Counted from the first letter of the stretch, positions 4,002 to 48,476 are shown. The stretch: DNA of 64,000 bases from a virus (IMGVR_UViG_2799112225_000003:2968-66967); one strand, 5' to 3'. The notes: generated by a model not told the origin, from the sequence alone. Translations and numbers: made by a program.

Positions 4002-4044
4002 AGTCCGGAGTCTTGTGAGACGGTGACCACTGCTTCAATCTGCG

Positions 4045-7000: not shown

Positions 7001-10000
7001 AAGGCCACGATCTCTAACGAGCCATCCTCGGCCGTGAGGGTCACGCCGTCGTGCCCCATCGCGCGCAGGTTCGACGTGAACCGGTCCACCTGCGCCTGCG
7101 TCGCCCGCTTCAGCCGAGCCTTGATTTCCGGGGTGGCAACGTAGGGGTTCGTGACTGCGAAGTACAGGGGCATAACGCGCGGTCCGCCCTGACCGCGCTT
7201 CGCGCCGGCATAGTAGTTCGCGTCCGTCGCGTCGCTCGCACCGTAGACGCCGCGGCCGAGCCAGCCTACGTCTTTTCGGTTTGGGTGCTCGGTATCGAAG
7301 GCGGCGAAGTCGTCGCGCGTGCCGTGGAAAAATACGAGCGGGCGGCCTTGCGCATCAACGGGTCCGAGTCGCCCAGGTGCGCCGCCATCTCGGCCGGGCC
7401 CACCGGCGGCAGCTCCGCCAACAGCTCCTCCAGATCCTTGCGTGCCGCTTCGGGTGTCTTTGAGGCTTCCATCCTGCCCACTGTACCAGTGCCAGAAGTT
7501 CGCGACACCTTCGTCGTTCGAGGCGATGGGGGCGCCCAGGCTATTGGCCGTGGCGGGGCCAGCCTCGCCACGGCTGAATCGCAGGCCGTCGCCGGGCCCA
7601 CCGTCCGGACCGCCCTGCTCGACGAAACGGCGGGCGGGCAGGATGAAGTTGCGCACGATCTCGTCATCCGTCATACGCAGGTTGCTGAAGCCCGGCACGT
7701 GCTGGCGCAGCCATGTGCGGATAGCAGCGATCGCGCGGCGCACGAAGTGCAGCTCGGGGTGGGTCTGCGCCATCTCGGCCAAGACTTCCTCCGCCGCGGC
7801 GCGCCGGTCCAGCTTGTTGACGCCGCGCAGGCCGTATTCCTCGATCTTCGCGTCCACGTCAGCCCGACGCATCGTGCCGATCTGGTTCAGCACCTCATCC
7901 AGCCCCTTCCCGAACTGGCCGCGCAGCCCGTGATGGCCCAGTACTTCATGGAAGAGGACGCGCGCAGCGTCGTTGGCCGTAGGAAGCCGCGAAGCCATCA
8001 GGTAGGCCTTGCCGCGATAGTAGAAGCCCTCGGGGGCACCACGCGCGCCGCCGCTGCGCTGCTTGAGGTCGGCGCGCCGGGCCGCCTCGGGCACAACGGG
8101 GTCGCCCATGTCGAAAGCAACGATCACCTCGGGCCCGTTGCCCCAGCCGGCGCGGATCGCCTCGACGGTCTTGGTCACGGACGCCACCGCCTGTGCCCGC
8201 GCCTGGGGCGAATAGTTGGGCAGCAGCGCACGCATCGCCCTCGCCGCCTCGGGCGACAGCATTTCGGTCCCGTCGCGCCGGAACTGCGCGTCGTCGGCGG
8301 GGCCACCGAACTCCTCGAGCGCATCCCCGAATCCTTGCTCGGTGAGCTGCTGACGCTGCTCGGCCATGGCCTTCTGCAACGCGGGCCGCTGATTCAGCGG
8401 GATGTCCGGCCCCTTCGCCACCAGCCGGCGCTGCACGCGGCGGTGCGCCTCACGCGCTACCTCCAGCTCCTTCGCCTGAGCGAACGGCTTGCCGGCCTGC
8501 TCGCGCAACTGCACCGCCGACTGCTTCGCCTCCGCGATCTTGGCGTCCAGGTCGACGATGTGCGCCGGAAGTCGATTGATGTAGTTGCCGAAGCGGGTCA
8601 GGATGCCAGCCGCCGACGGCAGCACGTCCCTGGCCGGCCGGTAGGAGTCCAAGCCGCCCGTGGGCGAGTTGAGCTCCACGTGGTCGGGCGTTCCTTCCAG
8701 CATGAAGGTCACGCCGCGGTACTGGAATTCCTCCTGCCCACCGCTCACGAACACGCGGTCGATGCCACGCTTGACGGCCTTGATCGCCGCCTCACGGTCA
8801 GTGATCGTCTTCCCGGCGACGGTCAGGCCGGCGAAGCCATCCTTGGGCACCGGGTGGGCTTCTGCTGCGGCCTGCAGCGCGCGGAACGTGTCCAGCTCCT
8901 TCGGTCCCCAGTCTTGCGCGAAGCGCTGCTGGTCGCGCGCCTGGCGCACCATCGCCGCAGTTTCGTCAGCGTGGGAGGCCTGCAGTGACTCCAGGCGGCG
9001 CACGTCGTTGCGGAGCCGGGTCTCTTCCAGGATGAGCGGGTCGCCCGATGCGGCGGCCTTCATGTCGGCCGCGTTGGCGGCCTCGCCCTCGATGTCGTCG
9101 ATCTCGTTGAGCGTGCCGTCGTACTTGCGCAGCTGCTCGATGCCGCGTGCCTTGTGTTCCAGGATCTGCCAGCGGCGCGTGTCGTAGGTCTGCTCGGTGG
9201 CGTAGCGGTAGATTTCCACCTCGAAGCCGTCCGGGTCACGGGCATAGAGCGCGTTGCCGCGGCGGATGATGCGGCCCTCGCGCTGCTCCAGGTCGCTCGG
9301 CCGCCACGGCGCGTCGATGTGGTGCAGCCCGACGAGGCGCTCCTGCACGTTGGTGCCTGCACCCATCTTCGGAGTGGAGCCCAACAGGAAACGGATGTCG
9401 CCCCGATTCACCGCCTTGAACAGCTTGTCCTTCGCCGCGGGCGTGTTGTAGTCGTGGATGAACGCGATCTCGCGCTCGGGCACGCCGCGGGCCATCAGCT
9501 TGCCCTTGATATCGTCGTACACCGAGAACGCGGTAGCCCCCGACATGCCCGCGATGTCTGCCAGCGAGATCGATTCGGTTTCCTCGGTGTCGATCTCGTT
9601 GGCGTTGTTGTAGTCGTCGATCTCGTCTTGCTGGAGGTCGCCGATGCGGTCCCGCGCGTCGATCCAGCGCTGACGGCGGCTGTCATCGTTCAGAGCCTGG
9701 GCCGCCCAATCGGTCGCAATGCCCTTGGCCGGCAGACCTGCGTGCACGCGCAGGCCGGTGGCCGCGTCGTAGATGGTGAAGGCCTTGGCGTCTTTGCCGC
9801 CCTCCTTCACCACGAAGAACGGCAGGTCTTCGTGGCCGCGCACCGTGTGCATCGTGCCCTTCTTGTGCACCAGCGCGCCTTCGTCGCGCACGTAGACGCG
9901 CCGCTCCTTGCTGCCGAAGCCGCTACGCGCCGACAGCGGCACGGAGAGGTCGCAGAAGACCAGTTGCGTTCCACGGTCGGCGGTCCACTTCTGGTAGGTG

Positions 10001-13000
10001 CCCAGCATGCGCTCGACGGCGAGGTTGATCTTCGAGCCCGCGAAGTCGGGGGCCGAGGGGTCGATCAGGCGGAAGTCCAGGCCCGCCTTGTTGGCCTGGC
10101 CAGTCAACGACAGCGCGTTGACCTTCCCCTTCGTCTCCTTCGTCAGGCGCTTCAGGTCCGCGAACTGCCCGAGGATCGACTTCGGGTCCACCTTGATCTT
10201 GGGCGACAGCGCCGCTTCGACCACCAGCAGCTTGGCGTCCTCTTCGGTCTTGGCGGACCCGATGAGTTGCCGAATCTCCTTCTCGTCGGGCTGCGGCACG
10301 CGGGTTTCTGCGCGCCAGCTGTTACCGTCCTCGGACTTCTCTATCACCGCGCGCTCGCCCGCGGCCGGGTTGAACCCGAACTGCACTCGCCCGCCCTGGA
10401 TGTCCAGCTGGGGCACGCCCATGAAGTTCGCCACCTCCGGCGAGCGCTTCGCCACCACGTTCACCGGCCGGCCGCCGGCCACCTGCGGCACCGGGAACGT
10501 ACGGCCCCGGGCCTCCTCCTGCGCCTTCAGGTCGTCCAGCGTCACCGTGTCGGCAAAGGTCTGGTACATGCCCATCAGTGCAGGCAGGTTCTTGAACTTG
10601 GCGAACCGCGAGGCCTGGCGGTATCCCGTGCCCGACGGCGAAACCTCGTACAGCGACTCCACGCTGCCGAATTGCTTGGCCCAGGCGTCGAAGACGTGCA
10701 GGCCCTGCGCCTTGAGCGTCGGGTACTGCAGGAACCGCTGCATGTTGAACATTTCCACCAGGCTGTTGGAAACCGGCGTGCCGGTCGCCCCCATCAGCGG
10801 GGCCTTGTCGCCCAGCGCGTCGAAGAGGTACTGGGCCTTCACGAAGAGGTCGAACGCCTTGTCCGATCCGCCCGGGTTGCCCATGCCCGGCACGCGCTCC
10901 ATGGTGGAGTTGTAGAAGAGGTTCTTGAACTCGTGCAGCTCGTCGATGGCGAAGGCATCGACGCCGAGCTCATCGAACGTCACCACCTTGTCGCGCTCCC
11001 CGAGGGCCTGCACGCGCTGCTTCATGCGCGCTTCCAGGCGGGCCTTGATGCTCTCCATGTCGCGCACGATGTTGCGGTCGCCGCGGGCGCGCTTCATCTC
11101 GCCGATGCTGTCGGCCAGCTCGGTAATCTGCTCTTCGAGCACCGCCTTTTCCGTCTCGGCCGGCAGAGCAATCCTCTTCAGGCTGGAGTGGCCGATGATG
11201 ACGGCATCCCAGTCGCCGGTGACGATCTTGGAGAAGAACTTCTCCCGGTTGCCCTTGGTGAAGTCGTCCGGCGTGGCCGCCAGCACGTTGGCCGCCGGGT
11301 ACAGGCGGGAGAACTCGCTGCGCCACTGCAGGGTCAGATGGTTGGGCACCGTTACGATGGGCTTCCGAGCGATGCCGAGCCGACGCATTTCCATGATGGC
11401 AGCCACCACCTCGAAGGTCTTGCCCGCGCCAACGACGTGATCCAGCAGGATCTGGCGCTGCTGCAGGGCCCGCCAGACCGCATCCTTCTGGTGAGGCAGC
11501 AGCTCCATCGCGGGCGACATGCCCGGGAAGGTCATGTGCGAGCCGTCGAAGCGACGCACCACGATGCGGTTCATCTTGTCGTTGTAGATGCCTGCAACGC
11601 GGTCGGCGCGCTCGGGATCGCTCCACAGCCAGCGCTGCCACTCGGCCTTCATGGCGGTCTGCTTCTCGCGCGCCGCCTCTGTCTCTTTCTCGAGCACCAC
11701 CGTGCGGGTACCGCCATTGGGGTCGCGGATGGTGTCCGTGACCACCACGCCCTGCCCCGCCATCGTGCGCATGAAGATGTTCTGCGCCGTCATCCGGCTG
11801 ATGCCCCACTTCGCGGTGTTGAGGGCCGGGTTGGGCTGAGAGGTGTAGTCCACCAGCCACTGCCCGGTCGCTCGCAGGTAGGTGACGCGCGCATCCGCGC
11901 CAGTCACTTCCTTGGCGAACTGCTGGAACAGCTCCTGGGGAATGAACGCCGCACCCATGGCCGCGTGGATTTCGCTCGGCCGCTTGTCGGCCGGGATGAC
12001 CTTGCGCAAGGCTTCCACGTTGCGGCGCAGTGCCGGGTCATCGCGCGCCGCAGCCTCTGCTTCGGCCAACTTCGTCTTCACGTCGCCGGACAGGTATTCG
12101 TCGGCCATCACGAGCCCGTTCACCGGGTCGGCATACACCACGTCGCCCAGCTCCGACACGATCTGGGCCGGCGGCTTGTCGTACAGCGTCGCCATGTAGT
12201 CGGCGTCCAGCCGCCCCTTGTAGTTCAGGCTGGCCAGCAGCGCGTCCTTGGCGTTGCTCACCTTGATGTTGTCCGCTGGCGGGAACATCACGCGGCGCGC
12301 GAAGATGTCGGCCTTGACCGCCTTGGGCGCGCGCGGCTCGATGTCCTCGCGCTCGGCCACCGCCTTGCTCACACCGCGGTCGTAGTCGAACTCCAGTGCC
12401 AGCACAAGGGCAGATTCTGTGTCGTCCAGAAAGATGCGGCGGTTGGTGGGATCGTTCAGGTAGCCGTACTTGCTCTGGAACCCGTCGTAGAGGCGATTCA
12501 GTTCGCGGCGATGCTGTTCGATCTGCCCGTCGGTCGAGTCGGGGGAGCGCTCCAGGCGCATCTGTGCGCGCAGCGCATCGCGCAACCCGACCATTCCCTT
12601 CATGCGCTCTGCCGCTTTCACATTGGGCGGCGTCCACGGCTCGGCCCTCCGGTTGCCGAGCGAATCAGGGCCGCGCATCAACACACGGCCGCTGTCGTCC
12701 ACGTAGAACGAACCGACCTTCACGCCGTCGGGCACCACCACGTCGGCGGCCTCCCGCTCGTGCGTTCGCTCGACTGGCTGGTAGACGTCTTCCGGCAGCG
12801 CATCGGCCCAGGTCTTCAGCTGCTGCGCCAGGTCGCCGGAAGGCTCCACCGTGTATTCGCCTGCACGGTACATCGAGCCCGCGGCCGTCGGCGTGCCGAG
12901 TACCGCCTCAGGGTTGCTCAGGAAGTAGCTGCTGACGTTGTGCTGCGTGGCCTCGCCCGTCTTCGGGTTGGCGAGGGTCTGCTGACCCGCCTTCACCCAT

Positions 13001-16000
13001 GCTGCGTCGCCCAAGCCATTCGCGCGCTCGGATTCCGTCTTCTTCTGGAACACAACGATGTCGGTCACCACCTCGGTGCCGGCGTTCGTCTTGAACGTGG
13101 TGTTCGGCAAGCGGACGGCCGCCACCAGGTTGGCGCGGTCGGCGATCCACTGGCGGGTCGCCTCGTTCTTGGCGTCGAGGAAGTTGTGCGACACCACCAT
13201 CGCCAGCAAGCCACCGGGGCGCAGCTTGTCGATGCTCTTGGCGAAGAAGTAGTTGTGGATCGAAAAGCCCGAGTACGGCGAGCGGTCGTCATCCACGATG
13301 GGCTCGGAGCCGAACGGCGGATTGCCCACGGCCAGGTCGAAGTACTCGGCCGGCGCCTGGAAGTCCTGGAAGCCAGTGGCCTGCGCCACCTTGGCGCTGG
13401 GATACAGCGCGGCGGCGATCTGGCTGGTCAGCGGATCCAGTTCCACGCCGTGCAACTGCGAGCGCTTCCGCATGCTCGCGGGCATCAGCCCGAAGAAGTT
13501 GCCGGTACCTACAGCCGGTTCGAGCACCCGGCCCGCGGAGAACCCCATGCGCTCGAGCGCCTGGTAGATGCCATCGACCACCACCGGCGACGTGTAGTGC
13601 GCATTCAGCACCGATGCGCGGGCGGCCTTGTATTCGGCATCGGTCAACAGCTCGCGCAGCTCGGCGAACTCCTTGGACCACTGCTTGTTCTGGGGGTCGA
13701 AGACACCCTTCAGCGCTCCCCAGCCGACGTAGCGCGCGATCTGCTTGCGCTCCTCGGGCGTGGCCTTGCGGCTCTCCCCGGCCAGCGCCTTGAGGATTCG
13801 GATGGCCGCAATGTTGTCGCGGTACTTCTTGGTGAGCCCGCCCTTGCCGATGTCCTCGGCATCTAGGGTGTGGTCGCTCGGCTGATCGAGCTCGGGCTTC
13901 GGCGACGCCTCGGCGGTCGCCGGGTCGGCTACAGCGTGGGCGGGCTGTCGCTCAGGCCGTACATCTCCGAGATCTCGTGGCGCGCGAGGTGCCGGTTCCC
14001 CGGATCGCTGTACGCCCTCCGTTCGGCCTCCTCCTGTTCCTTCAGAGCCGGCAGGAACTCGTTCGCCTCGATCAGCGCCTTCACCCGCTTCGGCCACCCG
14101 AGCATCCACCGGTTGGCGATCTCGGTCGCCAGCGCCGGCATCGCGCGCATCGCCTCCTTGATCGGCGGCGGGTAGTCGTTCGGTCTGTACAGCTCCTGCA
14201 TTTCGTCCATTGTCGTCTCCTGTGGAATGGGCATCAACGGGCTGCGGCGCCGATGCAGAGGGCTTGGGTTCGTTCAGCCGCGTTACCGGCCCGCGGCGAA
14301 GGTCCACGGCTGAGGGTTGCGTCGAATGTGTGCGCTGCTGCTCGCCTGGGATGTCTTCGAATTGCCCCTGGGCAACTTGGCGGACGGCCCGCACGTCCAC
14401 GCTCCACAAGCCGCCGTTGACGCCGGGCCGGTACGCAACCACACGGTCGAAGCCGCCGTAGCTCTTCACCACGTTGCCCGGCTGGAAGTACGAGGCGCGC
14501 GCCCGCTCTTCTGCTTCATCCTTCTTGGCGAGGACGCCTCGGCGCTGCTTGGGCTCTTGCGCGGGCGACGGGATCGAAGGGGCCGCGGGCTCATCCTTGC
14601 GGCGCATCGTGGCCAGCGGCTTCTTGAACCGGCCGTCCGCGAGGCCGGCCTTGAACTCGTCGACGGACATAGCCGTCACCGGGCCAACCTTCCAGCCCGC
14701 GTCGTAACTGCCCTTGTACGCAGCTACAGCCTCCGCTTCGCTGTGGAAACCGAAGAGGGCCTTCGCCTCGTCATAGGTGCCATCCCCGTTGATCTGGTCC
14801 ACCACGTAGACCGTCGGGGCGGTCGCCGCGGCGGGGCCGACGAACACATCCACGTGGTCGCCGTCGGCAGCCTCGGAGCCCTTCACGTAGCCGTAGTGCG
14901 CGGCCATCGTGTTGCTCCATTCGGTGCCGTCCGGCGACGTGCCGCGGCGCGTGCTGCCCTGCGGGTTCTCCACGCTGATGCGCAGGCCCTGCACCTCATC
15001 GCCGGACAAGTGGCCCATCTTGTAGTTGCCGGCCTCCTTCTGGGCCTGGCTGGGCTCGGGCAGGTCGTTTTGCGGGCTGGTCGCTGCTTCGTTCGCCGCG
15101 GCGTCGACCGGCGCTGCCGCTTCCGGCCGACGAGCGGCGCTGCTTTGCTCGCGCTCGATCTGCGCGATGTCGTTGTCGATGTCGCGCCGCAGAGGCGTGC
15201 CAGGCACAGCCTCGGCGCGCCGGCGGCGCAGGTCCGCCAGTTGATCGGCCGACGCAGCGGCTTGCGGCTGCGCAGCTTGTGCCGGCTGGGCGTCCTTGGC
15301 CTGCACAATGAAGCGCCGGTTGTCCGGCACCACCTCGTGCGTCTCCGTGAGGCCTGACGTTTCCACGAAGGCCTGCGCCTTGTCGCGGGACAGGAACCAT
15401 GCACTCCCTTCTTCCACCCGGCGAACCGCCTTCTCGCGCTTCGCGTTCGGGACTGCCGGTGCTGCCGGCGAGGGTGTCAGCGCTGCTGCGGCTGTGACTG
15501 GCGCTGCTGTAGTCGCTTCTGCTCCTGCCGGCGCTTGTTGCGCGACTGCTTGCTGGGCTTGATCGGCTTGAGTGCCAAGGGTTTCTCCTTTGGGTTGCGG
15601 TGCGGATTCGGGCGCGGCGCGGCGGTCGCGTGCTTGCGAAATGCCCTCCTGCACGCTGTTGGGCGCGGTCGGCGCCGCGGGCGCGAGGGCAGCAAGCTCG
15701 GCCCGGGCGCTGTCGCGCTCAGCGATCAAGCGCTGATCCCAGCCGTTCGACGCGGCCTGTTGGCGCACGAACTCCAGCCGCGCGCGCAGTTCGGCCTCCC
15801 GGTCCTGCGCCTGTTCGGAGATCTCTCCGGTTTCAGCATTGACGTTCGCCACAGGCGCTGCGGCGGGTGCCGGCGAAGCCGCCGCCGGTTTCGCGTCCTT
15901 GCCATCGGCAGCCTCGGTTTGAGCGGCGAGCTGGGCCGCCGCATTCATCACGTCGTGTGCGCCACCATCCACCGCCAGCGCGGCGGCGGTGGACAACGGA

Positions 16001-17238
16001 CCTGCAGCGGGGTCCAGCCCCATCGCTTCGGAGGGACGCACGGGCTTCGCTTCATCAGTGAGAGCGAGGTTGCCCGTGCTGAACTCGCGCGCGTCCGGTG
16101 CTGCCGCCTCGAAGTCCACGCCATCGGTAGGCGCCGTGGGCATCACATCGAGCGGCGGCCGGCTGGCCGGGTCGCGCGGATCAAAGGTGCGCTGCACGCT
16201 GGCCAAGCCGCCCGCAACCGCGGGAATCTCGCTGACCGCCGCGGGTGCCTGGCCCTGGTCCACTGGCAACAGCGAGAGCTGCTCGCCGGGCGTGCGCCCT
16301 GCACTGCCGAGCGCCGCCTGATTCGGGGCGTGCTGACCAGTGGCGCCATGCAGCAGCGCAGCCCCGCCGCCCATGGCACCGCCCGCGAGCAACCCGGCGG
16401 CGGCGGCCTTGCCGACACCTTCACCGACGGGCTTGTCCAGCGCGAGGTTCTGCAGCGCCTGCTCGGACATCGACTGCGGCAGTTCTTCGAGCACGCCCTC
16501 GGACAGGATGCCGGCGCCAACCTGGCGCGCGAGCGAACGCTGTGAGGCGGGCCCGGCGCCGTGGATGGCTCCCTGCGCCAGCATCGTGTCGGCATCGCCG
16601 ATACCGAGGCGTTGCGCCAGGCGGCCACCGAGTGCGCCAAAGCCAGCAGTAGCGGCGCCGGTCGCGGCGGACAGAGCCGCCTGCTTCGGGGTGAGCAACC
16701 CGTCTTGCGTCTCTTGGCGGATCTGCTCGGCCTGCGAGCCCGCCCCCAGCACGCCTTCACCGATGGCGCCAGCGATGGCCGGCGCCACCTTGGGCGCCAA
16801 CTTGAGCAAGCCGCGCGCCACGCCCGCGCCGCCGAGCATCTGCGGGATCGACTCGCCCACGCTGGTCGCGATGGTGCTGGGGTTCTCCAGCATGGTCTTG
16901 GCCGTGTCGACGAAGCCGTCGGCCGCCTGCACCTTGCGGTTGGCGCCCTTCTGCGCATCGGAGTACTGGTCGTCGAGGAACTTCTGCGCGTCCTCGAAGC
17001 GAACTCCTGCCTGCTCCAGAGCTTTGCCAGCGTGGCCGCCCGTCACGATGTCGGCCAAGCCGACGACGCTCTGCGGCAGGCCAACTGCGCCCTTCAGCGC
17101 AGTGACCCCGACATCCTTTGCGGTGCCGAGCACGGTGCGCTTCGCATCGGGCGGATCGAGCTCACCCGAAAACGGGGTGAGGTTGTGGGGTGGGGTATCG
17201 AGTTGCCCGTCGAAGGGCTTGAGGGTTTCGCCAGCCAT
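4045..17238 (-). CDS. Giant polyvalent/DarB-like virion-ejected protein (4397 aa): PPase-like, N6-adenine MTase, SNF2 helicase, zincin-like peptidase, ART-like and PLxRFG domains
   Basis: GNYKMGH...HYGYVKG...DGDHVDVFVGP; EPAVGTGNF and NPPF; VGAGKT, DELH, ATGTP, QREGRIIR; HEVLGHHG; FFHGT...GRGVY...EIVAFEPTQVKSAIGN; YAPLSRFGRY. Confidence 0.92.
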   Translation of the reverse strand: MAGETLKPFDGQLDTPPHNLTPFSGELDPPDAKRTVLGTAKDVGVTALKGAVGLPQSVVGLADIVTGGHAGKALEQAGVRFEDAQKFLDDQYSDAQKGANRKVQAADGFVDTAKTMLENPSTIATSVGESIPQMLGGAGVARGLLKLAPKVAPAIAGAIGEGVLGAGSQAEQIRQETQDGLLTPKQAALSAATGAATAGFGALGGRLAQRLGIGDADTMLAQGAIHGAGPASQRSLARQVGAGILSEGVLEELPQSMSEQALQNLALDKPVGEGVGKAAAAGLLAGGAMGGGAALLHGATGQHAPNQAALGSAGRTPGEQLSLLPVDQGQAPAAVSEIPAVAGGLASVQRTFDPRDPASRPPLDVMPTAPTDGVDFEAAAPDAREFSTGNLALTDEAKPVRPSEAMGLDPAAGPLSTAAALAVDGGAHDVMNAAAQLAAQTEAADGKDAKPAAASPAPAAAPVANVNAETGEISEQAQDREAELRARLEFVRQQAASNGWDQRLIAERDSARAELAALAPAAPTAPNSVQEGISQARDRRAAPESAPQPKGETLGTQADQAQQAVAQQAPAGAEATTAAPVTAAAALTPSPAAPAVPNAKREKAVRRVEEGSAWFLSRDKAQAFVETSGLTETHEVVPDNRRFIVQAKDAQPAQAAQPQAAASADQLADLRRRRAEAVPGTPLRRDIDNDIAQIEREQSSAARRPEAAAPVDAAANEAATSPQNDLPEPSQAQKEAGNYKMGHLSGDEVQGLRISVENPQGSTRRGTSPDGTEWSNTMAAHYGYVKGSEAADGDHVDVFVGPAAATAPTVYVVDQINGDGTYDEAKALFGFHSEAEAVAAYKGSYDAGWKVGPVTAMSVDEFKAGLADGRFKKPLATMRRKDEPAAPSIPSPAQEPKQRRGVLAKKDEAEERARASYFQPGNVVKSYGGFDRVVAYRPGVNGGLWSVDVRAVRQVAQGQFEDIPGEQQRTHSTQPSAVDLRRGPVTRLNEPKPSASAPQPVDAHSTGDDNGRNAGAVQTERLPAADQGGDARDAGAGDRDRQPVDARVAEAGEGADRGERVPAGSEGTGGGRTEGVQRSGEPAPRAPRDLGDVRPERQPAHAVADPATAEASPKPELDQPSDHTLDAEDIGKGGLTKKYRDNIAAIRILKALAGESRKATPEERKQIARYVGWGALKGVFDPQNKQWSKEFAELRELLTDAEYKAARASVLNAHYTSPVVVDGIYQALERMGFSAGRVLEPAVGTGNFFGLMPASMRKRSQLHGVELDPLTSQIAAALYPSAKVAQATGFQDFQAPAEYFDLAVGNPPFGSEPIVDDDRSPYSGFSIHNYFFAKSIDKLRPGGLLAMVVSHNFLDAKNEATRQWIADRANLVAAVRLPNTTFKTNAGTEVVTDIVVFQKKTESERANGLGDAAWVKAGQQTLANPKTGEATQHNVSSYFLSNPEAVLGTPTAAGSMYRAGEYTVEPSGDLAQQLKTWADALPEDVYQPVERTHEREAADVVVPDGVKVGSFYVDDSGRVLMRGPDSLGNRRAEPWTPPNVKAAERMKGMVGLRDALRAQMRLERSPDSTDGQIEQHRRELNRLYDGFQSKYGYLNDPTNRRIFLDDTESALVLALEFDYDRGVSKAVAEREDIEPRAPKAVKADIFARRVMFPPADNIKVSNAKDALLASLNYKGRLDADYMATLYDKPPAQIVSELGDVVYADPVNGLVMADEYLSGDVKTKLAEAEAAARDDPALRRNVEALRKVIPADKRPSEIHAAMGAAFIPQELFQQFAKEVTGADARVTYLRATGQWLVDYTSQPNPALNTAKWGISRMTAQNIFMRTMAGQGVVVTDTIRDPNGGTRTVVLEKETEAAREKQTAMKAEWQRWLWSDPERADRVAGIYNDKMNRIVVRRFDGSHMTFPGMSPAMELLPHQKDAVWRALQQRQILLDHVVGAGKTFEVVAAIMEMRRLGIARKPIVTVPNHLTLQWRSEFSRLYPAANVLAATPDDFTKGNREKFFSKIVTGDWDAVIIGHSSLKRIALPAETEKAVLEEQITELADSIGEMKRARGDRNIVRDMESIKARLEARMKQRVQALGERDKVVTFDELGVDAFAIDELHEFKNLFYNSTMERVPGMGNPGGSDKAFDLFVKAQYLFDALGDKAPLMGATGTPVSNSLVEMFNMQRFLQYPTLKAQGLHVFDAWAKQFGSVESLYEVSPSGTGYRQASRFAKFKNLPALMGMYQTFADTVTLDDLKAQEEARGRTFPVPQVAGGRPVNVVAKRSPEVANFMGVPQLDIQGGRVQFGFNPAAGERAVIEKSEDGNSWRAETRVPQPDEKEIRQLIGSAKTEEDAKLLVVEAALSPKIKVDPKSILGQFADLKRLTKETKGKVNALSLTGQANKAGLDFRLIDPSAPDFAGSKINLAVERMLGTYQKWTADRGTQLVFCDLSVPLSARSGFGSKERRVYVRDEGALVHKKGTMHTVRGHEDLPFFVVKEGGKDAKAFTIYDAATGLRVHAGLPAKGIATDWAAQALNDDSRRQRWIDARDRIGDLQQDEIDDYNNANEIDTEETESISLADIAGMSGATAFSVYDDIKGKLMARGVPEREIAFIHDYNTPAAKDKLFKAVNRGDIRFLLGSTPKMGAGTNVQERLVGLHHIDAPWRPSDLEQREGRIIRRGNALYARDPDGFEVEIYRYATEQTYDTRRWQILEHKARGIEQLRKYDGTLNEIDDIEGEAANAADMKAAASGDPLILEETRLRNDVRRLESLQASHADETAAMVRQARDQQRFAQDWGPKELDTFRALQAAAEAHPVPKDGFAGLTVAGKTITDREAAIKAVKRGIDRVFVSGGQEEFQYRGVTFMLEGTPDHVELNSPTGGLDSYRPARDVLPSAAGILTRFGNYINRLPAHIVDLDAKIAEAKQSAVQLREQAGKPFAQAKELEVAREAHRRVQRRLVAKGPDIPLNQRPALQKAMAEQRQQLTEQGFGDALEEFGGPADDAQFRRDGTEMLSPEAARAMRALLPNYSPQARAQAVASVTKTVEAIRAGWGNGPEVIVAFDMGDPVVPEAARRADLKQRSGGARGAPEGFYYRGKAYLMASRLPTANDAARVLFHEVLGHHGLRGQFGKGLDEVLNQIGTMRRADVDAKIEEYGLRGVNKLDRRAAAEEVLAEMAQTHPELHFVRRAIAAIRTWLRQHVPGFSNLRMTDDEIVRNFILPARRFVEQGGPDGGPGDGLRFSRGEAGPATANSLGAPIASNDEGVANFWHWYSGQDGSLKDTRSGTQGSGGAVGGAAAGGPGRDGGAPGRLGPVDAQGRPLVFFHGTRDDFAAFDTEHPNRKDVGWLGRGVYGASDATDANYYAGAKRGQGGPRVMPLYFAVTNPYVATPEIKARLKRATQAQVDRFTSNLRAMGHDGVTLTAEDGSLEIVAFEPTQVKSAIGNSGAFDGGNPDIRFSRSTVQDFAKKATAELNKTFTAPGKLSWWHKTVGTMYNLAERSPAFKAVFDSAQGFVDDVSFYANDAAELAPKLLPKLETWRDIKKAPVAAADNAAVAKPVFEGTLTWARDEQGKPVPVQSLIDAAAELTADQKAQRLLRNGQIDERMLKAWQGMPLESYEKAINTRFESRMLQPGVVWTDAELRSMFKLSDDQIALYHEFRETTDRSLDTMARADMLRFVGDDAKAMRGMVMDAPDVQAAAVLLRDHLVQLANEQPDRATQILNTANGIIDRADKVRDLQARGYAPLSRFGRYSVDVVDAAGERQYFGLFETAREANNMATKMREEFGDATVTQGTLSEEAFKLFAGVTPETLELFGNALGLDSTGDSAQDQAFQEYLRLTKTNRSAMRRLIHRKGIAGFSEDVGRVLASFIYSNARQTAAGLHMGDLGEAVQAIPKEQGELKDAAVRLAEYVKNPQEEAQAVRGLLFAQYLGGSVASAFVNMTQPVAVTLPWLSQYGGARAAAAQIGRAAKNIATRGFQYEPDLAAALKRAEDEGTVSPQEVHQLMAQARGASSLRSGDGTRGGELRAMGQNALSRLSLAWGKLFGAAEQVNRRVTFVAAYRTAKAQGMEDPAGFARKAITETQFLYSKANKMEWGRGAIGGTLMTFKTYSVAYLELLHRMYTQGGPEGKRAALLALGMLMLMGGAGGLPFEEDLEDAVDALAQMLGYNFSTKKARQDFLESLLPKPIAQFIDKGVSGLPGAPLDVSGRLGMGNLIPGTGLLLEKTSHSRDLLEIAGPAGDFASRILSGGRSVLTGDVGAGLLEMSPAAVRNAAKGADMAATGMYRDAKGYKVLDTNTLEATLKTIGFQPNSVATIQEANGINQGAKAFYNLRAQEIRAMWAQGIFEGDQQKVQDARDQVAAWNRKNPEQPMLVRIPDVMRRVREMQKSKDQRIADTAPKAMRVQMREDVARARAEGV
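7266..7472 (-). CDS. Candidate nested gene (68 aa) in +1 frame of giant gene
   Basis: MEASKTPEAARKDLEELLAELPPVGPAEMAAHLGDSDPLMRKAARSYF looks helical/HEAT-like while the main frame is a Gly-rich linker; RBS weak. Confidence 0.4.
   Translation of the reverse strand: MEASKTPEAARKDLEELLAELPPVGPAEMAAHLGDSDPLMRKAARSYFSTARATTSPPSIPSTQTEKT
13929..14210 (-). CDS. Nested gene (93 aa) in +1 frame of giant gene
   Basis: AGGAG 7 nt before ATG; protein-like sequence (IANRWMLGWPKRVKALI...HLARHEISEMYGL) while the main frame is low-complexity G/R/D/A. Confidence 0.75.
   Translation of the reverse strand: MDEMQELYRPNDYPPPIKEAMRAMPALATEIANRWMLGWPKRVKALIEANEFLPALKEQEEAERRAYSDPGNRHLARHEISEMYGLSDSPPTL
15477..15578 (-). 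CDS. Candidate nested basic micro-protein (33 aa) in +1 frame of giant gene
   Basis: AAAGGAGA then TTG start; MALKPIKPSKQSRNKRRQEQKRLQQRQSQPQQR. Confidence 0.45.
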   Translation of the reverse strand: MALKPIKPSKQSRNKRRQEQKRLQQRQSQPQQR

Positions 17239-17244
17239 TGCGCC

Positions 17245-17286
17245 AGTCTTCCGACGGGCGCTCCATGCGTCGAACCCTACAGGGGA
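17245..17286 (-). promoter_or_regulatory. Putative late promoter, copy 2 (giant gene)
   Basis: TCCCCTGTAGGGTT-N20-GGAAGACT, 6 nt to ATG at 17238. Confidence 0.65.
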
Positions 17287-34394: not shown

Positions 34395-34802
34395 CTAAAC
34401 TTTGAATATTTTATTGGTCCCGTTGTCCCAAGTCACAATAATGTCGCCTCCATTAGGAGTGATCGGCAGGCCGGTGGCCGTGTCGATGTATGCGATCAGC
34501 GGCGAGGTGGCCTCGGTGCCGGTGTCGCGGTAGATCACGATGGCCTCGATGCTCGCGCCAGACACGGCCGTGAACGTCACGTCCGCGCCGTCGGCCGCGC
34601 CACCCGTGGTGGTCTTCGCGGTCAGCGTCACCGGCCCGGCGATGCGCGCCGAGATCGGGATGTCCGCGAGGTACTGGTGGATGGCCGTCTGCGGCGTGTA
34701 GGCGCCGGTGTCCACCAGGAGCACCTTGATAGTGTCGGTTGCCCAGTTGAGCTGGGCTTCGAGGAAGCGCTGCCGCGCAGCGTCATACAGGGTGTTTGCC
34801 AT
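34395..34802 (-). CDS. Virion structural/fibre subunit (135 aa)
   Basis: MANTLY...TIKVLLVD...DGADVTF...LIAYID...PNGGDIIVTW. Confidence 0.8.
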   Translation of the reverse strand: MANTLYDAARQRFLEAQLNWATDTIKVLLVDTGAYTPQTAIHQYLADIPISARIAGPVTLTAKTTTGGAADGADVTFTAVSGASIEAIVIYRDTGTEATSPLIAYIDTATGLPITPNGGDIIVTWDNGTNKIFKV

Positions 34803-35004
34803 TTGCGGCCTCTTCAGCGGAAGAAGCGCACTCCTGCGCGCCGGTGGTTGCGCGCCCGGCTGGGCGCTGGATGGGTGTGTTCGCGTCGGCGCAGATGGCG
34901 AGACGCGCGCGCTGCCCCGACTTCTGCGAGAGCGTCACCAGCGTGTTGCCGATGCGCACCGTCTCGCCGACGCGGAGCTCTACGTGAACGAGGGTGGTGC
35001 TCAT
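34783..35004 (-). CDS. CsrA/RsmA-like RNA-binding protein (73 aa)
   Basis: LRVGETVRIGNTLVTLSQKSGQRARLAICADANTPIQR aligns by eye with CsrA [39 protein letters not shown]; ATGA overlap with upstream gene. Confidence 0.7.
   Translation of the reverse strand: MSTTLVHVELRVGETVRIGNTLVTLSQKSGQRARLAICADANTPIQRPAGRATTGAQECASSAEEAANGKHPV
34809..34841 (-). promoter_or_regulatory. Translational control element: AGGA-loop hairpin plus SD-occluding hairpin
   Basis: mRNA GCGCGC-AGGA-GUGCGC then CUUCUUC-CGCU-GAAGAGG stem pairing the SD. Confidence 0.65.
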
Positions 35005-35696
35005 GGCAGGATCAGCACGTTGTGGTGTTGAACGTCCTCGCGCGTGATGCGGCGGAGATCGCTGTCGGGCATCGGCCCGAAGTAGGCCGTGAAACCCGCC
35101 TCTGCCCTGTCCGAGCGCGCGGGGTCGAACGCTTCGCTGTCGGGGATGCTGAAAGCCTTGTGCAGCGCCCACAGCAGGAGGTGCTCGTGGTGCGTCTTGT
35201 GGATCTCGGGGGTGCTACGCACCACTGGCGGCGGCGAGCCGGCCGGCGGCAGCGCCATCGGCTCCAGGGGCGTGCGGTAGCACTCGAGCACGAGCACATC
35301 GCCGGCATCGAAGGCTCCAACCACGCGCAAGGAGGTGTCGTCCTGGATCGCGAAGCACGCCGGCTCCGCGCGCTCCCGCCAGCCAGGAACCTCGGCATCC
35401 AGCCATTCGCGCGAAACGAGCCTGAGCTCGCGCGGTCGGTCGCCGTTGGCGGGCTGGAGGCGCAGGCTGATGAGCTCGAACGCCGCCGCGTGGAGCGGAT
35501 ACACAGCCTGGCCTGACGCGAGCGCGATGCGGCACACGGCGGGGTTCGCATCCTCGCGCAGCAGCCTGCCGCGCACGGCGGCCTGCTGCTCGGCGTCGTT
35601 CAGCCAGTCCACAACATCGGCATCCGCCCAGAAATAGGGCTGCCGCTTGTCGTTGGACAGGACGCGGAAGCGTCGGATCAAATCCTGCAGGGTCAT
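35001..35696 (-). CDS. Head-tail adaptor protein (231 aa)
   Basis: MTLQDLIRRFR...PYFWADADVVDWLNDA...PEIHKTHHEHLLLWALHKAF; position after head genes. Confidence 0.75.
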   Translation of the reverse strand: MTLQDLIRRFRVLSNDKRQPYFWADADVVDWLNDAEQQAAVRGRLLREDANPAVCRIALASGQAVYPLHAAAFELISLRLQPANGDRPRELRLVSREWLDAEVPGWRERAEPACFAIQDDTSLRVVGAFDAGDVLVLECYRTPLEPMALPPAGSPPPVVRSTPEIHKTHHEHLLLWALHKAFSIPDSEAFDPARSDRAEAGFTAYFGPMPDSDLRRITREDVQHHNVLILP

Positions 35697-39132: not shown

Positions 39133-39312
39133 GCTCGTCCGCCACATGTCGCCGTGGCCGCTAGGGACATCCGCATTCGGAGCACTGGGTGAGGCCGAAG
39201 CCCCACCCCGTACACCTCCAGCTGGGGGAGTTACCTCGCGCTCTTTCGAGGGAGGTGCCGGCTCTCACGAGCGGGCTGCGTCACGATCCGCTCTCGCTTC
39301 ACGCTTGAGCGC
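39133..39312 (-). ncRNA. Highly structured 5' leader RNA of the head operon
   Basis: Hairpins capped by GUGA, GAAA, GUAA and cUUCGg tetraloops; multibranch closed by CACCUCC/GGAGGUG. Confidence 0.6.
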
Positions 39313-39313
39313 C

Positions 39314-39355
39314 ACTGTGCCGACAGCGGGTCGCTCCGGGAAACCCTACAGGGGG
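39314..39355 (-). promoter_or_regulatory. Putative late promoter, copy 4 (scaffold/capsid/tail operon)
   Basis: CCCCCTGTAGGGTT-N20-GGCACAGT. Confidence 0.65.
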
Positions 39356-45211: not shown

Positions 45212-46168
45212 TCAGTCCTCGCCGTCCACGTCTTGGCGCGGCTGCAGTGCGCTCGGCGACGGCACACCGGCGGTAGGTGCCTCCGGATCGTCCGCCACGG
45301 GCCGGAATCCATTGGCATTGCCCGTGGTGATGCGGCTCAGCAGCGAGGCCAGCGGGTCGGTCTTCTGCTGGTTGTCCTTCTCGTAGAGGCCCAGGTGCTT
45401 GAACAGCTTCTCGGCGAACGCGGCCTTGTCGTGCATGGAGATCTCGATGCCGTACTTCGTCATCTTGGCGCCGGCATAGAGGGCGCGCGCCGCGGGAGAG
45501 AGGTGCCGGGTGTCGGCCAGGACCGTGCGGGCATATCCGTCGCCGCCACAGTCCGGGCAGGATGGATGTGGCGGCTTGAGCGGGTCGAACCCGATGCCGC
45601 CCTTCTCGTCGAAGTCGGCCAGGTTGCCGGCCTTCAGGGCGTGCTGCTCGCGGTCGTGATTGAACTCGCCCACGGTGCGCTGGAACTTGAAGCCCTCGCC
45701 CCAGCAGTGCCGGCAGCAGCCCACCTTCACCTGCACCAGCTCGCGCGGGTCGGCGAAAACGATGTTCCAGGCCTCCACCACCACGCGGTCGGCCTCGATG
45801 TGCGTACGGGCCTGCTGGAGCTTTCGAGCGTCAGCGATGGCAATCTGGATGTACGGTTTTGACAGGTTCTCCGATGCCATCTGCCGGGCGGTGTCCGGGC
45901 TGTAGCCGGCTCGAATGGCAGCCTGCGTGCCGTTCAGGTCCACCAGGTACTCATCGACGAAGCGCTGTTGGAGGTCGGTCAGGCCGAGCTGTGCGGGTTC
46001 GGCTGGTGGTGCTGGTGTTGCGCGGACCGGCCGGGATGGCTTCTTCGCCTTTGCCGGCGGCGCCTTCTTGCGCGCAGGTGCGCCCGCGGCCTTCTTGGGG
46101 GCGGCGGGCGTAGTGGTGGTCTTCTTCGGTGCGGGCGCCTGCTTCTTGGCGGGCTTGCGTGGTGCCAT
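45212..46168 (-). CDS. terS: Terminase small subunit with Zn-finger insert
   Basis: QQRFVDEYLVDLNGTQAAIRAGYS; CRHC...CPDC. Confidence 0.92.
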   Translation of the reverse strand: MAPRKPAKKQAPAPKKTTTTPAAPKKAAGAPARKKAPPAKAKKPSRPVRATPAPPAEPAQLGLTDLQQRFVDEYLVDLNGTQAAIRAGYSPDTARQMASENLSKPYIQIAIADARKLQQARTHIEADRVVVEAWNIVFADPRELVQVKVGCCRHCWGEGFKFQRTVGEFNHDREQHALKAGNLADFDEKGGIGFDPLKPPHPSCPDCGGDGYARTVLADTRHLSPAARALYAGAKMTKYGIEISMHDKAAFAEKLFKHLGLYEKDNQQKTDPLASLLSRITTGNANGFRPVADDPEAPTAGVPSPSALQPRQDVDGED

Positions 46169-46175
46169 GCGCGCG

Positions 46176-46217
46176 AGTTTTTCCGCACGCCACGAGTACG
46201 TCGAACCCTAGAGGGGG
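46176..46217 (-). promoter_or_regulatory. Putative late promoter, copy 5 (terminase operon)
   Basis: CCCCCTCTAGGGTT-N20-GAAAAACT, 7 nt to terS ATG. Confidence 0.65.
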
Positions 46218-46233: not shown

Positions 46234-46983
46234 TTACGGCGGAAGTTCCGCGCAGATCATTCCAATCGCAACCGTGGTTTGGTTTAGTAAATCTTCAGCC
46301 TCATTCATTGAGTAAAAAGCTGTGGGATGCTGCGTTGGATTTCTAAAGTGCACACGCATGCCATCGAGATGAGAAAGCAGCTTTTCAGAAGGCTTCGGTT
46401 TGTTCTTGCTTCGCAACTCAGCGGTCATGGGCCCCCACATGGGCTTTGCAAGACGTTTTGTCTTTTTAAATGCGAAATAAAGGACTTTCACTTGCTCCTC
46501 AAGAGCTCTCATTAGATGGAATGCAGCACCCGTTGGTTGATTGAGCGCAATCAGCATGCATGCCGATCTGAAATCTTTTTCTGACGTCTCCGTCAGAGTT
46601 TTCCAAGAGTCTTTTCCAAGTAAGTCCTCCGGACTTTCAGTGAGAGAGGGCAGAGCATGCCTCTTCTTTGTCATGATATACGCTGCACGTAGTTTTAGCT
46701 CGGCATCCAGGGCCGGATCAAGCTTATCGACTGCCGCCTCGATTCTGGCTCCCATTGATGAAGACAATGTTTTATCTGACGACGATTTAAGCTCTGCGCT
46801 AATTACAGCAAGTTCATTTGCAATTTTTTGGGTTACCTGAAGATCGAATTCTTTCAGCGACGCCAAAAAACTATCGAGCTGCGAGATTACAGCATCTTTA
46901 TCTAGTCCACCTGCTGGTCTGACCCGCAATATGCAGTAGTTATATCCGAACGAATAATAGCGATAGAGAGGTTGTTGTTCCAC
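46234..46983 (-). CDS. HEPN-domain protein (moron, putative RNase/defence)
   Basis: AAFHLMRALE and RNPTQH (Rx4H); GTG start with GAGG RBS; AT-rich. Confidence 0.8.
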   Translation of the reverse strand: MEQQPLYRYYSFGYNYCILRVRPAGGLDKDAVISQLDSFLASLKEFDLQVTQKIANELAVISAELKSSSDKTLSSSMGARIEAAVDKLDPALDAELKLRAAYIMTKKRHALPSLTESPEDLLGKDSWKTLTETSEKDFRSACMLIALNQPTGAAFHLMRALEEQVKVLYFAFKKTKRLAKPMWGPMTAELRSKNKPKPSEKLLSHLDGMRVHFRNPTQHPTAFYSMNEAEDLLNQTTVAIGMICAELPP

Positions 46984-47072: not shown

Positions 47073-47107
47073 CAAAGAGAAGCCCGCCAGGGGTGGGCCT
47101 GGCGGGC
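47073..47107 (-). terminator. Intrinsic terminator of putative ncRNA
   Basis: GCCCGCCAGG-CCCACC-CCTGGCGGGC followed by TTCTCTTT on the minus strand. Confidence 0.75.
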
Positions 47108-47280
47108 GAACGTGCGGCCGGAGCCGCGCGAGGAGACAACTTGCCGGCGAAGCGCCGGGGGTTCGGTCCATCCGACTGCGTGGGGATGCATCCCCTGAGA
47201 CGCGCAAGGGGTCTAGCGGAGTGGTTTGCCCCCCACTCCAGCACCAGGGCTGATGCCAAGTTCGGGGTCCGGTGATCGGT
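47073..47280 (-). ncRNA. Putative ~200-nt structured phage late ncRNA
   Basis: Lies between late-promoter copy 6 and a terminator, no convincing ORF, several perfect hairpins. Confidence 0.6.
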
Positions 47281-47286
47281 GGAGTG

Positions 47287-47328
47287 ATGGTCACGCAAGA
47301 CCCCAACGTGGCGAATCCCTACAGGGGG
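47287..47328 (-). promoter_or_regulatory. Putative late promoter, copy 6 (ncRNA)
   Basis: CCCCCTGTAGGGAT-N20-GTGACCAT. Confidence 0.6.
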
Positions 47329-47378: not shown

Positions 47379-47933
47379 ATGGCAGGCTATATCGAGTTGG
47401 AGGTGACGAAACGGGATCGCGAGAACTGCGACGCTTTGCACGCGGCCGCAAAGTTCGTTTTGGAGCAGGTTGACGGGGCAGACCTTGTGGCAACCGAATT
47501 CGATGATGCTCTCAGCGCGGACGTCTCCTGGACGTTGCTCATTCCGGACGAGCATCAATTCGACCGCATCCTCGATGCCTATCGGGCAGTCAGCACAACC
47601 GGTGAGCCTCCCCTTGTCAACGCTACTTGCTACCGCAGCGGTCGCCCGAACGAACTAGAGCTCGGCGACGACGAGCACTCCATTGAGTACTTCAATCCGC
47701 GCCCGAACAGCGACGGCTTTATGGTTCACCACACCGACAGCGCAGTGCGACTCACTCACCGGCCGAGTAGGACAGTCGCGATTAGCGAGAGAGCTAGGTC
47801 CCGCCATGCCAACCTCCGAATCGCGCGACAAATGTTGAGCGCCAAACTTGCAGACAACCCAGCTGCCTTGCTGCTCGGCCGCCGATCGATTGAGAGCCTC
47901 AAGCACCGGCCTTTTCCAGCACCTACACGCTGA
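47379..47933 (+). CDS. Protein with C-terminal release-factor (RF-1)-like domain lacking GGQ
   Basis: IEYFNPRPNSDGFMVHHTDSAVRLTHRPS...RSRHANLRIARQMLSAKL; GGAG RBS. Confidence 0.7.
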   Translation: MAGYIELEVTKRDRENCDALHAAAKFVLEQVDGADLVATEFDDALSADVSWTLLIPDEHQFDRILDAYRAVSTTGEPPLVNATCYRSGRPNELELGDDEHSIEYFNPRPNSDGFMVHHTDSAVRLTHRPSRTVAISERARSRHANLRIARQMLSAKLADNPAALLLGRRSIESLKHRPFPAPTR

Positions 47934-48462
47934 CGGTGCGCTCGAAATGTCCGCCGTTTGCAGCCGGCTGCGACCGCTGTTGTGATACGTCGAATAACTG
48001 CCCTTGGTTCGCAGTCGCCGGTGCTTCGAGCGCCGCCACGCGCCGCCGCAGGCGCTTAATCTCCTCGGCCATTTCGGCCGCCAGCAGCGCAGTGTTCCTG
48101 CCCGTCTCTACGGCTGCGGCCTGCGCGGCGGCGCCGGCCATCAGGTTCGCCAGCGCCCGGTCCTCGCGTGGCGTGAGCGTGAGCACCTCGTCGCCGATCT
48201 CGATCTTCACGGTGCCGTCAGGCATCACGGTCTTGGACATGGGCCGCGCGGGCGCGTGTCGCACCGCCGGCACGAACACACCGCGCTGCACGCGCACGAT
48301 GTCGCCCTCGTCCACCAGGACGCCGAGGCGGTCGTCGATGGTCGTGAGCTTCAGGCCGGTGAGCTCGGCCAGCGTCTCTCGGGTGACCACCTGCTCCTGG
48401 GCGTGCAGATCCTGCACCGCCTCAAGCACCACCAGCAGGGTTGATTTCTGGGCTTCAGCCAT
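47923..48462 (-). CDS. Winged-helix DNA-binding protein, candidate late-gene activator
   Basis: VTRETLAELTGLKLTTIDDRLGVLVDEGDIVRVQRGVF; last gene of the PR operon; GAGGAG RBS. Confidence 0.7.
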   Translation of the reverse strand: MAEAQKSTLLVVLEAVQDLHAQEQVVTRETLAELTGLKLTTIDDRLGVLVDEGDIVRVQRGVFVPAVRHAPARPMSKTVMPDGTVKIEIGDEVLTLTPREDRALANLMAGAAAQAAAVETGRNTALLAAEMAEEIKRLRRRVAALEAPATANQGQLFDVSQQRSQPAANGGHFERTVSV

Positions 48463-48476
48463 TCGTTCTCCTCGTC

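Follow-up and report, generated by a model that had tools for sequence, protein, structure and literature searches.

Introduction

In the available text of two reports on Burkholderia cenocepacia, members of the RNA family RF02278 are described as double hairpins of ~57–92 nt with unpaired CU-rich stretches complementary to ribosome-binding sites (PMC4603805, PMC5688073). One of them, NcS27, is processed to a short form; its overexpression slows growth and the CU-rich 5′ region mediates this effect, according to the accessible part of its description (PMC5688073). S17 of Bordetella pertussis, related to RF02278, is presented in the available sections of its report as a 190-nt transcript from which RNase E produces a stable 67-nt form beginning at a CU-rich site; S17 acts at ribosome-binding sites to repress transporter genes and a sigma-54 activator (PMC11722255). 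As far as these sources extend, RF02278-type sRNAs (NcS27, S17) are conserved in Betaproteobacteria and act to limit transport and the catabolism of carbon and amino acids, as well as a sigma-54 activator. Our literature search, which did not reach the original description (Kimelman 2012), retrieved no paper that connects RF02278 with phages.

The DNA analysed here, called the window, is a stretch of 64,000 nt (IMGVR_UViG_2799112225_000003:2968-66967) that makes up most of the length of a 66,967-bp IMG/VR provirus; positions are counted from its first letter. A preliminary description had placed on its minus strand, at 47280–47073, a stand-alone structured ncRNA with a late promoter and a terminator, and had offered as functional alternatives a CsrB/RsmZ-like sponge for a phage CsrA-like protein, a packaging or structural RNA, and a decoy against host defence. 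The ncRNA unit was upheld by our analysis; none of the three functions gained support.

Genomic Setting and Relatives

The large terminase is 65–66% identical to those of the Pseudomonas phages F116 and 8P and 57–59% identical to those of the Burkholderia Bcep22 group, and the best explanation for the source of the RNA gene is an F116/Bcep22-like temperate phage of Burkholderiales. Beside the locus, NinB-like and HNH/YbcO-like genes lie on the minus strand beyond a conserved winged-helix (wHTH) ORF (47923–48462, minus strand; phrog_8117, weak AbiEi_4 match). An RF-1-domain ORF on the plus strand (47379–47933) stands between the wHTH gene and the RNA, and a HEPN-like ORF of low G+C (46234–46983, minus strand) between the RNA and TerS (45212–46168, minus strand), after which TerL comes next.

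Relatives were collected through a TerS search, which gave 80 viral loci. By blastn, the element upstream of TerS was present at 67–80% identity in 17 of the 80 (12 distinct sequences), and only its last 60 nt were matched in three further loci, L005, L012, and part of L009. Pattern scans added more viral and metagenomic copies and one genomic copy, in Variovorax paradoxus NBRC 15149. Three of the four pattern matches in genome contigs (L104–L106) looked like chance and were left out before alignment, and a 17-nt pattern of hairpin H2 (see below) had 11 matches in viral contigs, all in unrelated low-GC coding sequence, which were discarded. Among 50,697 phage records blastn found no match to the element, and in the terminase regions of F116 and Bcep22 the covariance model R1, run with filters off, found nothing above 10 bits.

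The order wHTH gene, variable cargo, RNA, variable cargo, TerS was constant among the relatives, and the genes flanking the RNA change between loci. Since neither the HEPN-like nor the RF-1-domain ORF of the window had a tblastn match in any of the 80 related loci, they are considered cargo and not partners of the RNA. The RF-1-domain ORF (184 codons, RF-1/PrfH-like), probably cargo by this reading, scored 32.5 bits in Pfam, where the cut-off is 35, and 32 bits against NCBIfam prfH, far under the cut-off, and no GGQ motif was visible at the position expected from the alignment. The HEPN-like ORF (249 codons, ~45–50% G+C, weak HEPN similarity with E = 0.004, phrog_32483 match) is confined to the window's provirus among the loci compared. 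PADLOC assigned neither ORF to a family. A type III toxin-antitoxin pairing of the RNA with the HEPN-like ORF was discarded, the ORF being unique to the window and the RNA not.

Promoter Box and Limits of the RNA Gene

Ahead of the RNA there is a promoter box, CCCCCTGTAGGG followed by ATTCGCC (47310–47328, minus strand), which was recognized by motif counts and in the relatives. Its core, CCCCTGTAGGG, at 47327–47317, is located 37 nt ahead of the start given in the preliminary description. At one mismatch or less the core occurs 6 times in the window against 0.75 expected (0 of 100 shuffles). Four boxes on the minus strand stand ahead of the giant ORF (17275–17285), the capsid-region operon (39344–39354), TerS (46206–46216), and the RNA (47317–47327). 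The TerS box, with one mismatch, lies 38 nt ahead of the TerS ATG and downstream of the RNA terminator; in L016 the same arrangement comes immediately after the RNA terminator. Since a separate box past the terminator serves TerS, we regard the RNA as a unit by itself. At 45 distinct box sites in related loci a TTCGMC-like element comes directly after the box, with a GAACAT/CAAAGT/CACACT-like hexamer ~24 nt further downstream. The window has a −10-like hexamer, GACCAT (47287–47292, minus strand), 17 nt past TTCGCC, its position being read from the sequence and the box class.

From the box it is 36 nt to the 5′ end of tRNA-Met in relatives and 37–39 nt to the ATG of TerS (window, L016, and F116) and to that of the giant ORF, neither of which shows a Shine-Dalgarno sequence. 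Because the box class sets a fixed distance to the following feature, the RNA is predicted to start at ~47281–47278 and to end at ~47073, giving ~208 nt, in agreement with the coordinates of the preliminary description. The arrangement also suggests that the late mRNAs of TerS and of the giant ORF are leaderless. In our interpretation a phage activator binds the box and the promoter class serves structural operons, and it is from this reading that we infer the “late” timing. At the other end, a consensus scan found the intrinsic terminator that had been claimed: a 10-bp hairpin with 9 GC pairs (47107–47082) and a U-rich run, together 47073–47107 on the minus strand, with compensatory changes at 3 of the 10 pairs. 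The relatives, the box, and the terminator support a structured ncRNA that stands alone, has a terminator of its own, and is preceded by a phage promoter of the late-operon class.

Other places served by this promoter class were also noted. In F116 the box arrangement is alike, with a one-base variant of the box (L139, ~4033–4082), and an in-frame ATG 25 codons upstream of the annotated TerS start lies at the box-defined distance (L139, 4080–4155). This ATG opens a lysine- and proline-rich N-terminus resembling that of the window's TerS, and the annotated F116 start may be too far downstream. In the window, the giant ORF under its box promoter is a single frame of 4397 codons (4045–17238, minus strand). 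The stretch downstream of the capsid-operon box (~39200–39340, minus strand), which begins with GGCGCUCAAGCGUGAAGCG in the window, is conserved across loci (L082 from 9953; L085 and L127 at minus-strand box indices 8834 and 8442) and may be a structured 5′ leader of that operon. Another box-driven conserved stretch, containing GUCAACGGGUAGCGGCCAAGAC, is found ~5 kb downstream of TerS in relatives (L015 10671, L014 10336, L008 9827, L063 10501, L016 7098, and L083 minus-strand index 8433); no exact box was seen at the matching place in the window.

In relatives, a tRNA-Met (CAT) is under the control of a box located within or just past the 3′ end of the wHTH gene, with box positions L008 2658, L009 4201, L015 2114, L014 2967, L007 1546, L010 2463, L016 707, L063 2904, and L027 4103. 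The one tRNA inspected closely, that of L027, has a non-standard first acceptor pair and a GGG/CCC anticodon stem, which we take to be features typical of initiator tRNAs. No tRNA is present in the window, and the RF-1-domain ORF takes the place that tRNA-Met has in relatives.

The folding energy of the window's copy alone was only modestly unusual (z = −2.06), so the case for an RNA rests on the relatives. ARAGORN found neither tRNA nor tmRNA in the window. The comparison with Rfam by Infernal that had been proposed gave 0 matches at gathering thresholds over the whole window and, in an E-value search of the region, a single same-strand match, RF02278, at a sub-threshold 15.1 bits. The view that no credible ORF exists held: the longest and most widely shared frame, which starts at a GUG within the second hairpin, remains open in 12 of the 16 copies; a UAG interrupts it in the window and L015, L016 and L063 do not have it, and it would cross the terminator. 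On these grounds a conserved small ORF was judged unlikely and rejected. A riboswitch was also set aside, as the downstream genes vary and no alternative pairing with the terminator was seen. As judged from sequence, then, this is a real, conserved, non-coding, and, by prediction, independently transcribed RNA gene of ~208 nt (47280–47073, minus strand), with its own promoter motif and intrinsic terminator.

The 3′ Module and Its Relation to RF02278

Alignments of 19 and then of 22 distinct copies showed that only the 3′ 65–70 nt are common to all. The last 65 nt had been taken for a linker and a terminator; this view has to be replaced, as the module (47074–47143, minus strand) resembles a known host sRNA family, RF02278. 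It scores 80 bits with R1, a covariance model made from 22 phage copies. Its layout is a single-stranded, CU-rich, anti-Shine-Dalgarno-like seed, GUUGUCUCCUCG (47129–47140, minus strand), a covarying hairpin (47111–47130, minus strand), UUC, and the terminator. Ten of the 12 seed bases are invariant in the 22 distinct copies and the other two are at least 90% conserved. The first hairpin shows compensatory double changes at 3 of its 7 pairs over the 22 copies, and its loop differs in sequence and length between them. In the MAFFT alignment, both helices of the module were 88% paired against 37–48% with the partners slid, with double changes at six pairs.

On the module, RF02278 was either the top-ranking Rfam family or the sole credible one, both in the window and in the relatives, where it covered the module at full length with 18.8, 20.8, 22.7, 25.3, 38.5, and 44.6 bits. 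Every phage copy stayed under its gathering threshold of 50 bits, the best at 44.6 and the window at 15.1. An unpaired CU-rich 5′ start, UGUCUCCUC, is present, its core invariant in 22 of 22 distinct phage copies; it is identical to the start of the RF02278 consensus and of the Variovorax locus L107, and L108 agrees at 8 of 9 bases. Two hairpins are also present, the second being a Rho-independent terminator, as indicated by the compensatory changes and the terminator scan. The second CU-rich stretch that RF02278 has in the loop of the first hairpin was not found in the window, where this loop is a short, GC-rich hairpin loop, UCCG; the loops of the L008 type (UACCUU) and of L078 are nearer to RF02278 and score higher.

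Besides its short-form prophage copy (L103), the Variovorax genome holds on its chromosome an RF02278 member of 62.9 bits and a second, sub-threshold RF02278-type locus of 37.7 bits. Both chromosomal loci (L107 and L108) start with GUUGUCUCCU, like the phage module. Detection was reciprocal: in a direct search of these pre-selected loci, R1 scored 35.9 bits on L107 and 31.1 bits on L108, full length, and unrelated sequence in 0.9 Mb scored no higher than ~20 bits. A whole-genome search of Variovorax with R1 returned only the prophage copy among the 150 of 8535 candidates scored. By the curated threshold the module is no RF02278 member, and it shares with the family the seed, the architecture, and the reciprocal model matches. 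Because that threshold is not reached and the second CU-rich loop is missing, we call it related and not a member; by sequence comparison, it appears to be a phage-encoded RNA related to the betaproteobacterial double-hairpin (“toxic”) sRNAs and to work like them.

What stands before the module varies. In most copies the box is followed by the 5′ domain and then the module. In L012, L103, and L083 the module is alone, with the box ~45 nt ahead; in L027 it abuts the CCA end of tRNA-Met; the order is tRNA, 5′ domain, module in L009 and L136, and tRNA, unrelated spacer, module in L005. The 5′ domain is thus replaced in relatives by nothing, by an initiator-type tRNA-Met, or by another spacer. Among the 77 TerS loci searched, R1 found the module in 16 and R2, the model of the 5′ domain, found the domain in 11. 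R1 also detected phage copies in L027 and L078/L079; in L078/L079 the copy immediately follows a TATAAT hexamer.

The 5′ Hairpin Domain

The 5′ domain spans 47144–47270 on the minus strand (112 bits with R2 at 47140–47270). All the hairpins of the preliminary description were found there on the minus strand: H1, GCAUCAG/CUGGUGC (47257–47240); H2, GGAGUGG/CCACUCC (47239–47218); H3, CCCCU/AGGGG (47210–47192); H6, UCGG-AUGGA-CCGA (47175–47163); and H7, CCGGCG/CGCCGG (47158–47144). The helix AACUUG/CAAGUU, said to enclose them, is present in the window, but several aligned relatives disrupt it with no compensating change, and it was abandoned. The window's copy lacks ~35 nt of the family consensus, namely H4 and the 5′ half of H5, the deletion junction being at 47187/47186; its 112 bits compare with 138–191 bits for the 15 intact copies.

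A covariation check came out in favour of the structure. Over 16 long forms, the 60-pair structure had 94.7% of its cells paired against 33–43% with the partners slid; compensatory double changes occurred at 12 pairs against 0–4 in the slid controls, and 0 of 500 shuffles reached the covariation score. The helices H1, H3, H4, H5, and H6 covary, and covariation is silent on H2 and H7, which never vary informatively in the 16 copies. Considering that the alignment holds only these 16 long forms, closely related to each other, the support from covariation is graded as moderate. Long-range pairs given by RNAalifold (columns 27–29 with 186–188) were set aside in favour of the local hairpin H7.

H2, its loop (GGGGYAAR), and the loop of H6 (AUGGA) are nearly invariant over the 16 copies. 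This conservation, which a reading of the domain as mere precursor leaves unexplained, suggests that the domain has a function of its own. R2 found only the 16 known copies among 89 sources and no similarity to the phage domain at the flanks of the Variovorax RF02278-type loci, and no Rfam family matched the domain, an intact copy included; therefore, the 5′ domain appears to be a young, clade-restricted addition. A search with R2 over 151 genomes of the family of Variovorax, with 19 candidates scored per genome and no positive control, gave no match.

Seed Complementarity and Candidate Targets

Sites complementary to the seed were sought in host and phage. Exact copies of the 10-nt complement number 9 in the Variovorax genome, compared with a single one for its reversed control. 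The sRNA genes themselves account for two of these sites, and 6 of the remaining 7 lie 1–5 nt before the ATG of an ORF that is open for at least the 200 codons read; judged by their N-termini, these candidate targets include acyl-CoA dehydrogenase-like and solute-binding proteins. Because any 10-mer with a Shine-Dalgarno core is expected near start codons, the sites speak for plausibility and not for specificity.

In the window, the 12-nt seed complement had no other match better than chance. The ribosome-binding site of the wHTH gene, CGAGGAGA (48467–48474, minus strand), is complementary to the seed over 8 nt, the only phage start region in the window with an 8-nt match, and is a candidate phage target. 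The site is kept in 10 of 10 distinct module-bearing relatives, and also in L011, which is without the module; in L010 and L013 the match is of 8 + 4 nt around a one-base bulge. Feedback of the sRNA on the presumed wHTH activator is a possibility raised by this complementarity. The accessibility of the seed in the long form, predicted by partition function, ranged from 0.21 to 0.77 across copies. Directly before the seed there is a conserved AGUU, a candidate RNase E site.

Discussion

The best explanation, to which we give a confidence somewhat above even, is that the locus encodes a phage-borne, extended seed sRNA of the RF02278/S17 type, released from a precursor of ~208 nt. A phage-specific promoter of activator type (palindromic box CCCCTGTAGGG, weak −35, −10-like hexamer) would direct the synthesis of the precursor up to the terminator. 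Its functional core would be the 3′ 65–70 nt, that is, the CU-rich single-stranded seed, the hairpin, and the terminator with its U tail. By analogy with the conversion of S17L to S17S, the primary transcript would be cut just before the seed, probably by RNase E, and this cut would free a seed-first, Hfq-type sRNA of ~65 nt with its 5′ end at UUGUCUCC. The freed sRNA would pair with Shine-Dalgarno regions and block translation; its likely targets would be transport and catabolic genes under control of the host's own copy and, possibly, the phage wHTH regulator. The 130-nt 5′ domain would be a clade-specific part of the precursor, which may affect stability, masking of the seed, or the timing of its release. 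In this way the phage would probably borrow an sRNA control circuit of the host during infection.

A wider scheme, which we hold to be improbable, would make the RNA one component of a programme by which the phage redirects translation late in infection. Box promoters would start the mRNAs of TerS and of the giant protein at or near the ATG, leaving them leaderless, and in relatives they would also drive an initiator-type tRNA-Met, and the anti-Shine-Dalgarno-like sRNA would blanket host mRNAs led by a Shine-Dalgarno sequence together with the phage wHTH mRNA. The 5′ domain would then be a new structured RNA gating the release or exposure of the seed.

Other readings were weighed against that of a released seed sRNA. 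The RNA might be active at full length, with the 5′ domain binding a phage or host protein or acting as a structural or decoy RNA, and with the 3′ module mainly as stabilizer and terminator. The near invariance of H2 and of the H2 and H6 loops over 16 copies and the covariation of five helices agree with this, as does the fact that the domain, without a match in Rfam, retains 112 bits even in the deleted copy of the window. However, the domain is dispensable, since the complete relatives L012 and L027 have the module without it; H4 and half of H5 are gone from the copy in the window; and the domain occurs in only 11 of 77 TerS loci, whereas the module is spread more widely and has its seed conserved in every copy. 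We therefore consider this reading unlikely, although it is the chief rival. In lambda, pR′-tR′ yields a short, promoter-proximal terminated RNA of the late-leader type, whose terminator falls within the late transcription unit, and there is no separate promoter for the late genes. A cis-acting late leader of this kind, whose terminator would be overridden to express the packaging genes, would suit an RNA that stands between the regulatory genes and TerS, shares strand and promoter class with TerS, and has a strong terminator at its end. It is rendered very unlikely by the box that TerS has for itself after the terminator and by the unrelated cargo genes between the RNA and TerS; in relatives such as L008 and L010, moreover, the flank past the terminator seems, from a direct reading of the sequence, to be the end of an opposite-strand gene, and a leader would not need an invariant seed and covarying hairpins.

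The idea of a CsrB/RsmZ-like sponge has in its favour a CsrA-like ORF in the window (34783–35172, minus strand; phrog_8397, E = 1.7e-17), a CsrA-like gene annotated beside a head gene in Bcep22, and the AUGGA exposed in the loop of one conserved hairpin. Against the Pfam CsrA model the ORF scored 14.6 bits, under the cut-off. The five GGA triplets counted in the preliminary description are present, one of them in the AUGGA loop, but they are not an enrichment: dinucleotide shuffles have 3.2 ± 1.3, and 17% of 2000 shuffles reach five. The GGA of the AUGGA loop is the only one that is conserved (15 of 16 copies) and also unpaired, the others being in stems or poorly conserved. No model of CsrB, RsmY, or RsmZ gave a match. 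Among 11 proviruses that were at least 97% complete, the CsrA-like gene was present in 4 of the 6 with the 5′ domain (missing in 2) and in 2 of the 5 without it, so the gene and the domain are not coupled. A sponge thus seems extremely improbable. Hardly any credence is given to the reading that there is no RNA gene here, the element being a packaging or protein-binding site in the DNA or a small protein-coding gene. The element does adjoin the terminase genes, and its high G+C leaves long open frames on both strands; but the substitutions in the stems are compensatory, which a packaging site would not explain, indels of 1, 2, and 35 nt break the frames, the only widely shared one being stopped in the window, and in relatives this promoter class also serves tRNA genes, some of which immediately precede the element.

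If the reading as a released RF02278/S17-type sRNA is true, a phage copy under a late-type promoter would represent a virus taking a core riboregulator of its host to reset host metabolism or translation. It would also be a natural experiment on the essential part of such an sRNA, in which the seed has been kept and everything else exchanged. The data define, in addition, a promoter class common to F116-like phages, driving a tRNA, an sRNA, and apparently leaderless structural operons, and a 130-nt structured RNA domain outside the known families.

Comparison with Known Systems

The enterobacterial prophage sRNAs DicF, IsrK, AgvB/AsxR, and svsR are, in the portions of their descriptions available, phage-borne RNAs that plug into host post-transcriptional networks, as proposed for the module; their sequences are unrelated to it, and their hosts and promoters differ. 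To our knowledge, none of them is a copy of a conserved core host sRNA. With CsrB, RsmY, and RsmZ the phage RNA shares a multi-hairpin form, an end at a terminator, and one ANGGA loop; unlike them, it is without repeated GGA loops, without a match to their models, and without a strict link to the CsrA-like gene.

The likeness to S17 (S17L of 190 nt, S17S of 67 nt) is drawn from the accessible part of its published description and not from sequence: a long transcript that ends at a terminator, with an active short form as its 3′ third starting at the CU-rich site and repression through ribosome-binding sites, is described for S17 and predicted for the phage RNA. S17 is reported there to be cleaved beside GU/UGU in an RNase E-like manner, a context that the phage AGUU before the seed resembles (PMC11722255). 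Unlike the phage RNA, S17 is described as chromosomal and sigma-A driven, with a 32-codon ORF in its long form. Processing, Hfq binding, and targets are demonstrated for S17 in that same part of the source; for the phage RNA we infer them.

From the RF02278 sRNAs of B. cenocepacia (ncS03, ncS05, NcS27, and ncS62) the phage copies differ in sitting under a phage promoter box, in scoring 15–45 bits against a threshold of 50, and in carrying a structured 5′ extension of 130 nt or a fused tRNA; the first loop in the window is, besides, short and not CU-rich. With these same sRNAs the phage module has in common a length of ~60–70 nt, the CU-rich start UGUCUCCUC, two hairpins joined by UUC of which the second is an intrinsic terminator, a betaproteobacterial setting, and a CU-rich stretch complementary to ribosome-binding sites.
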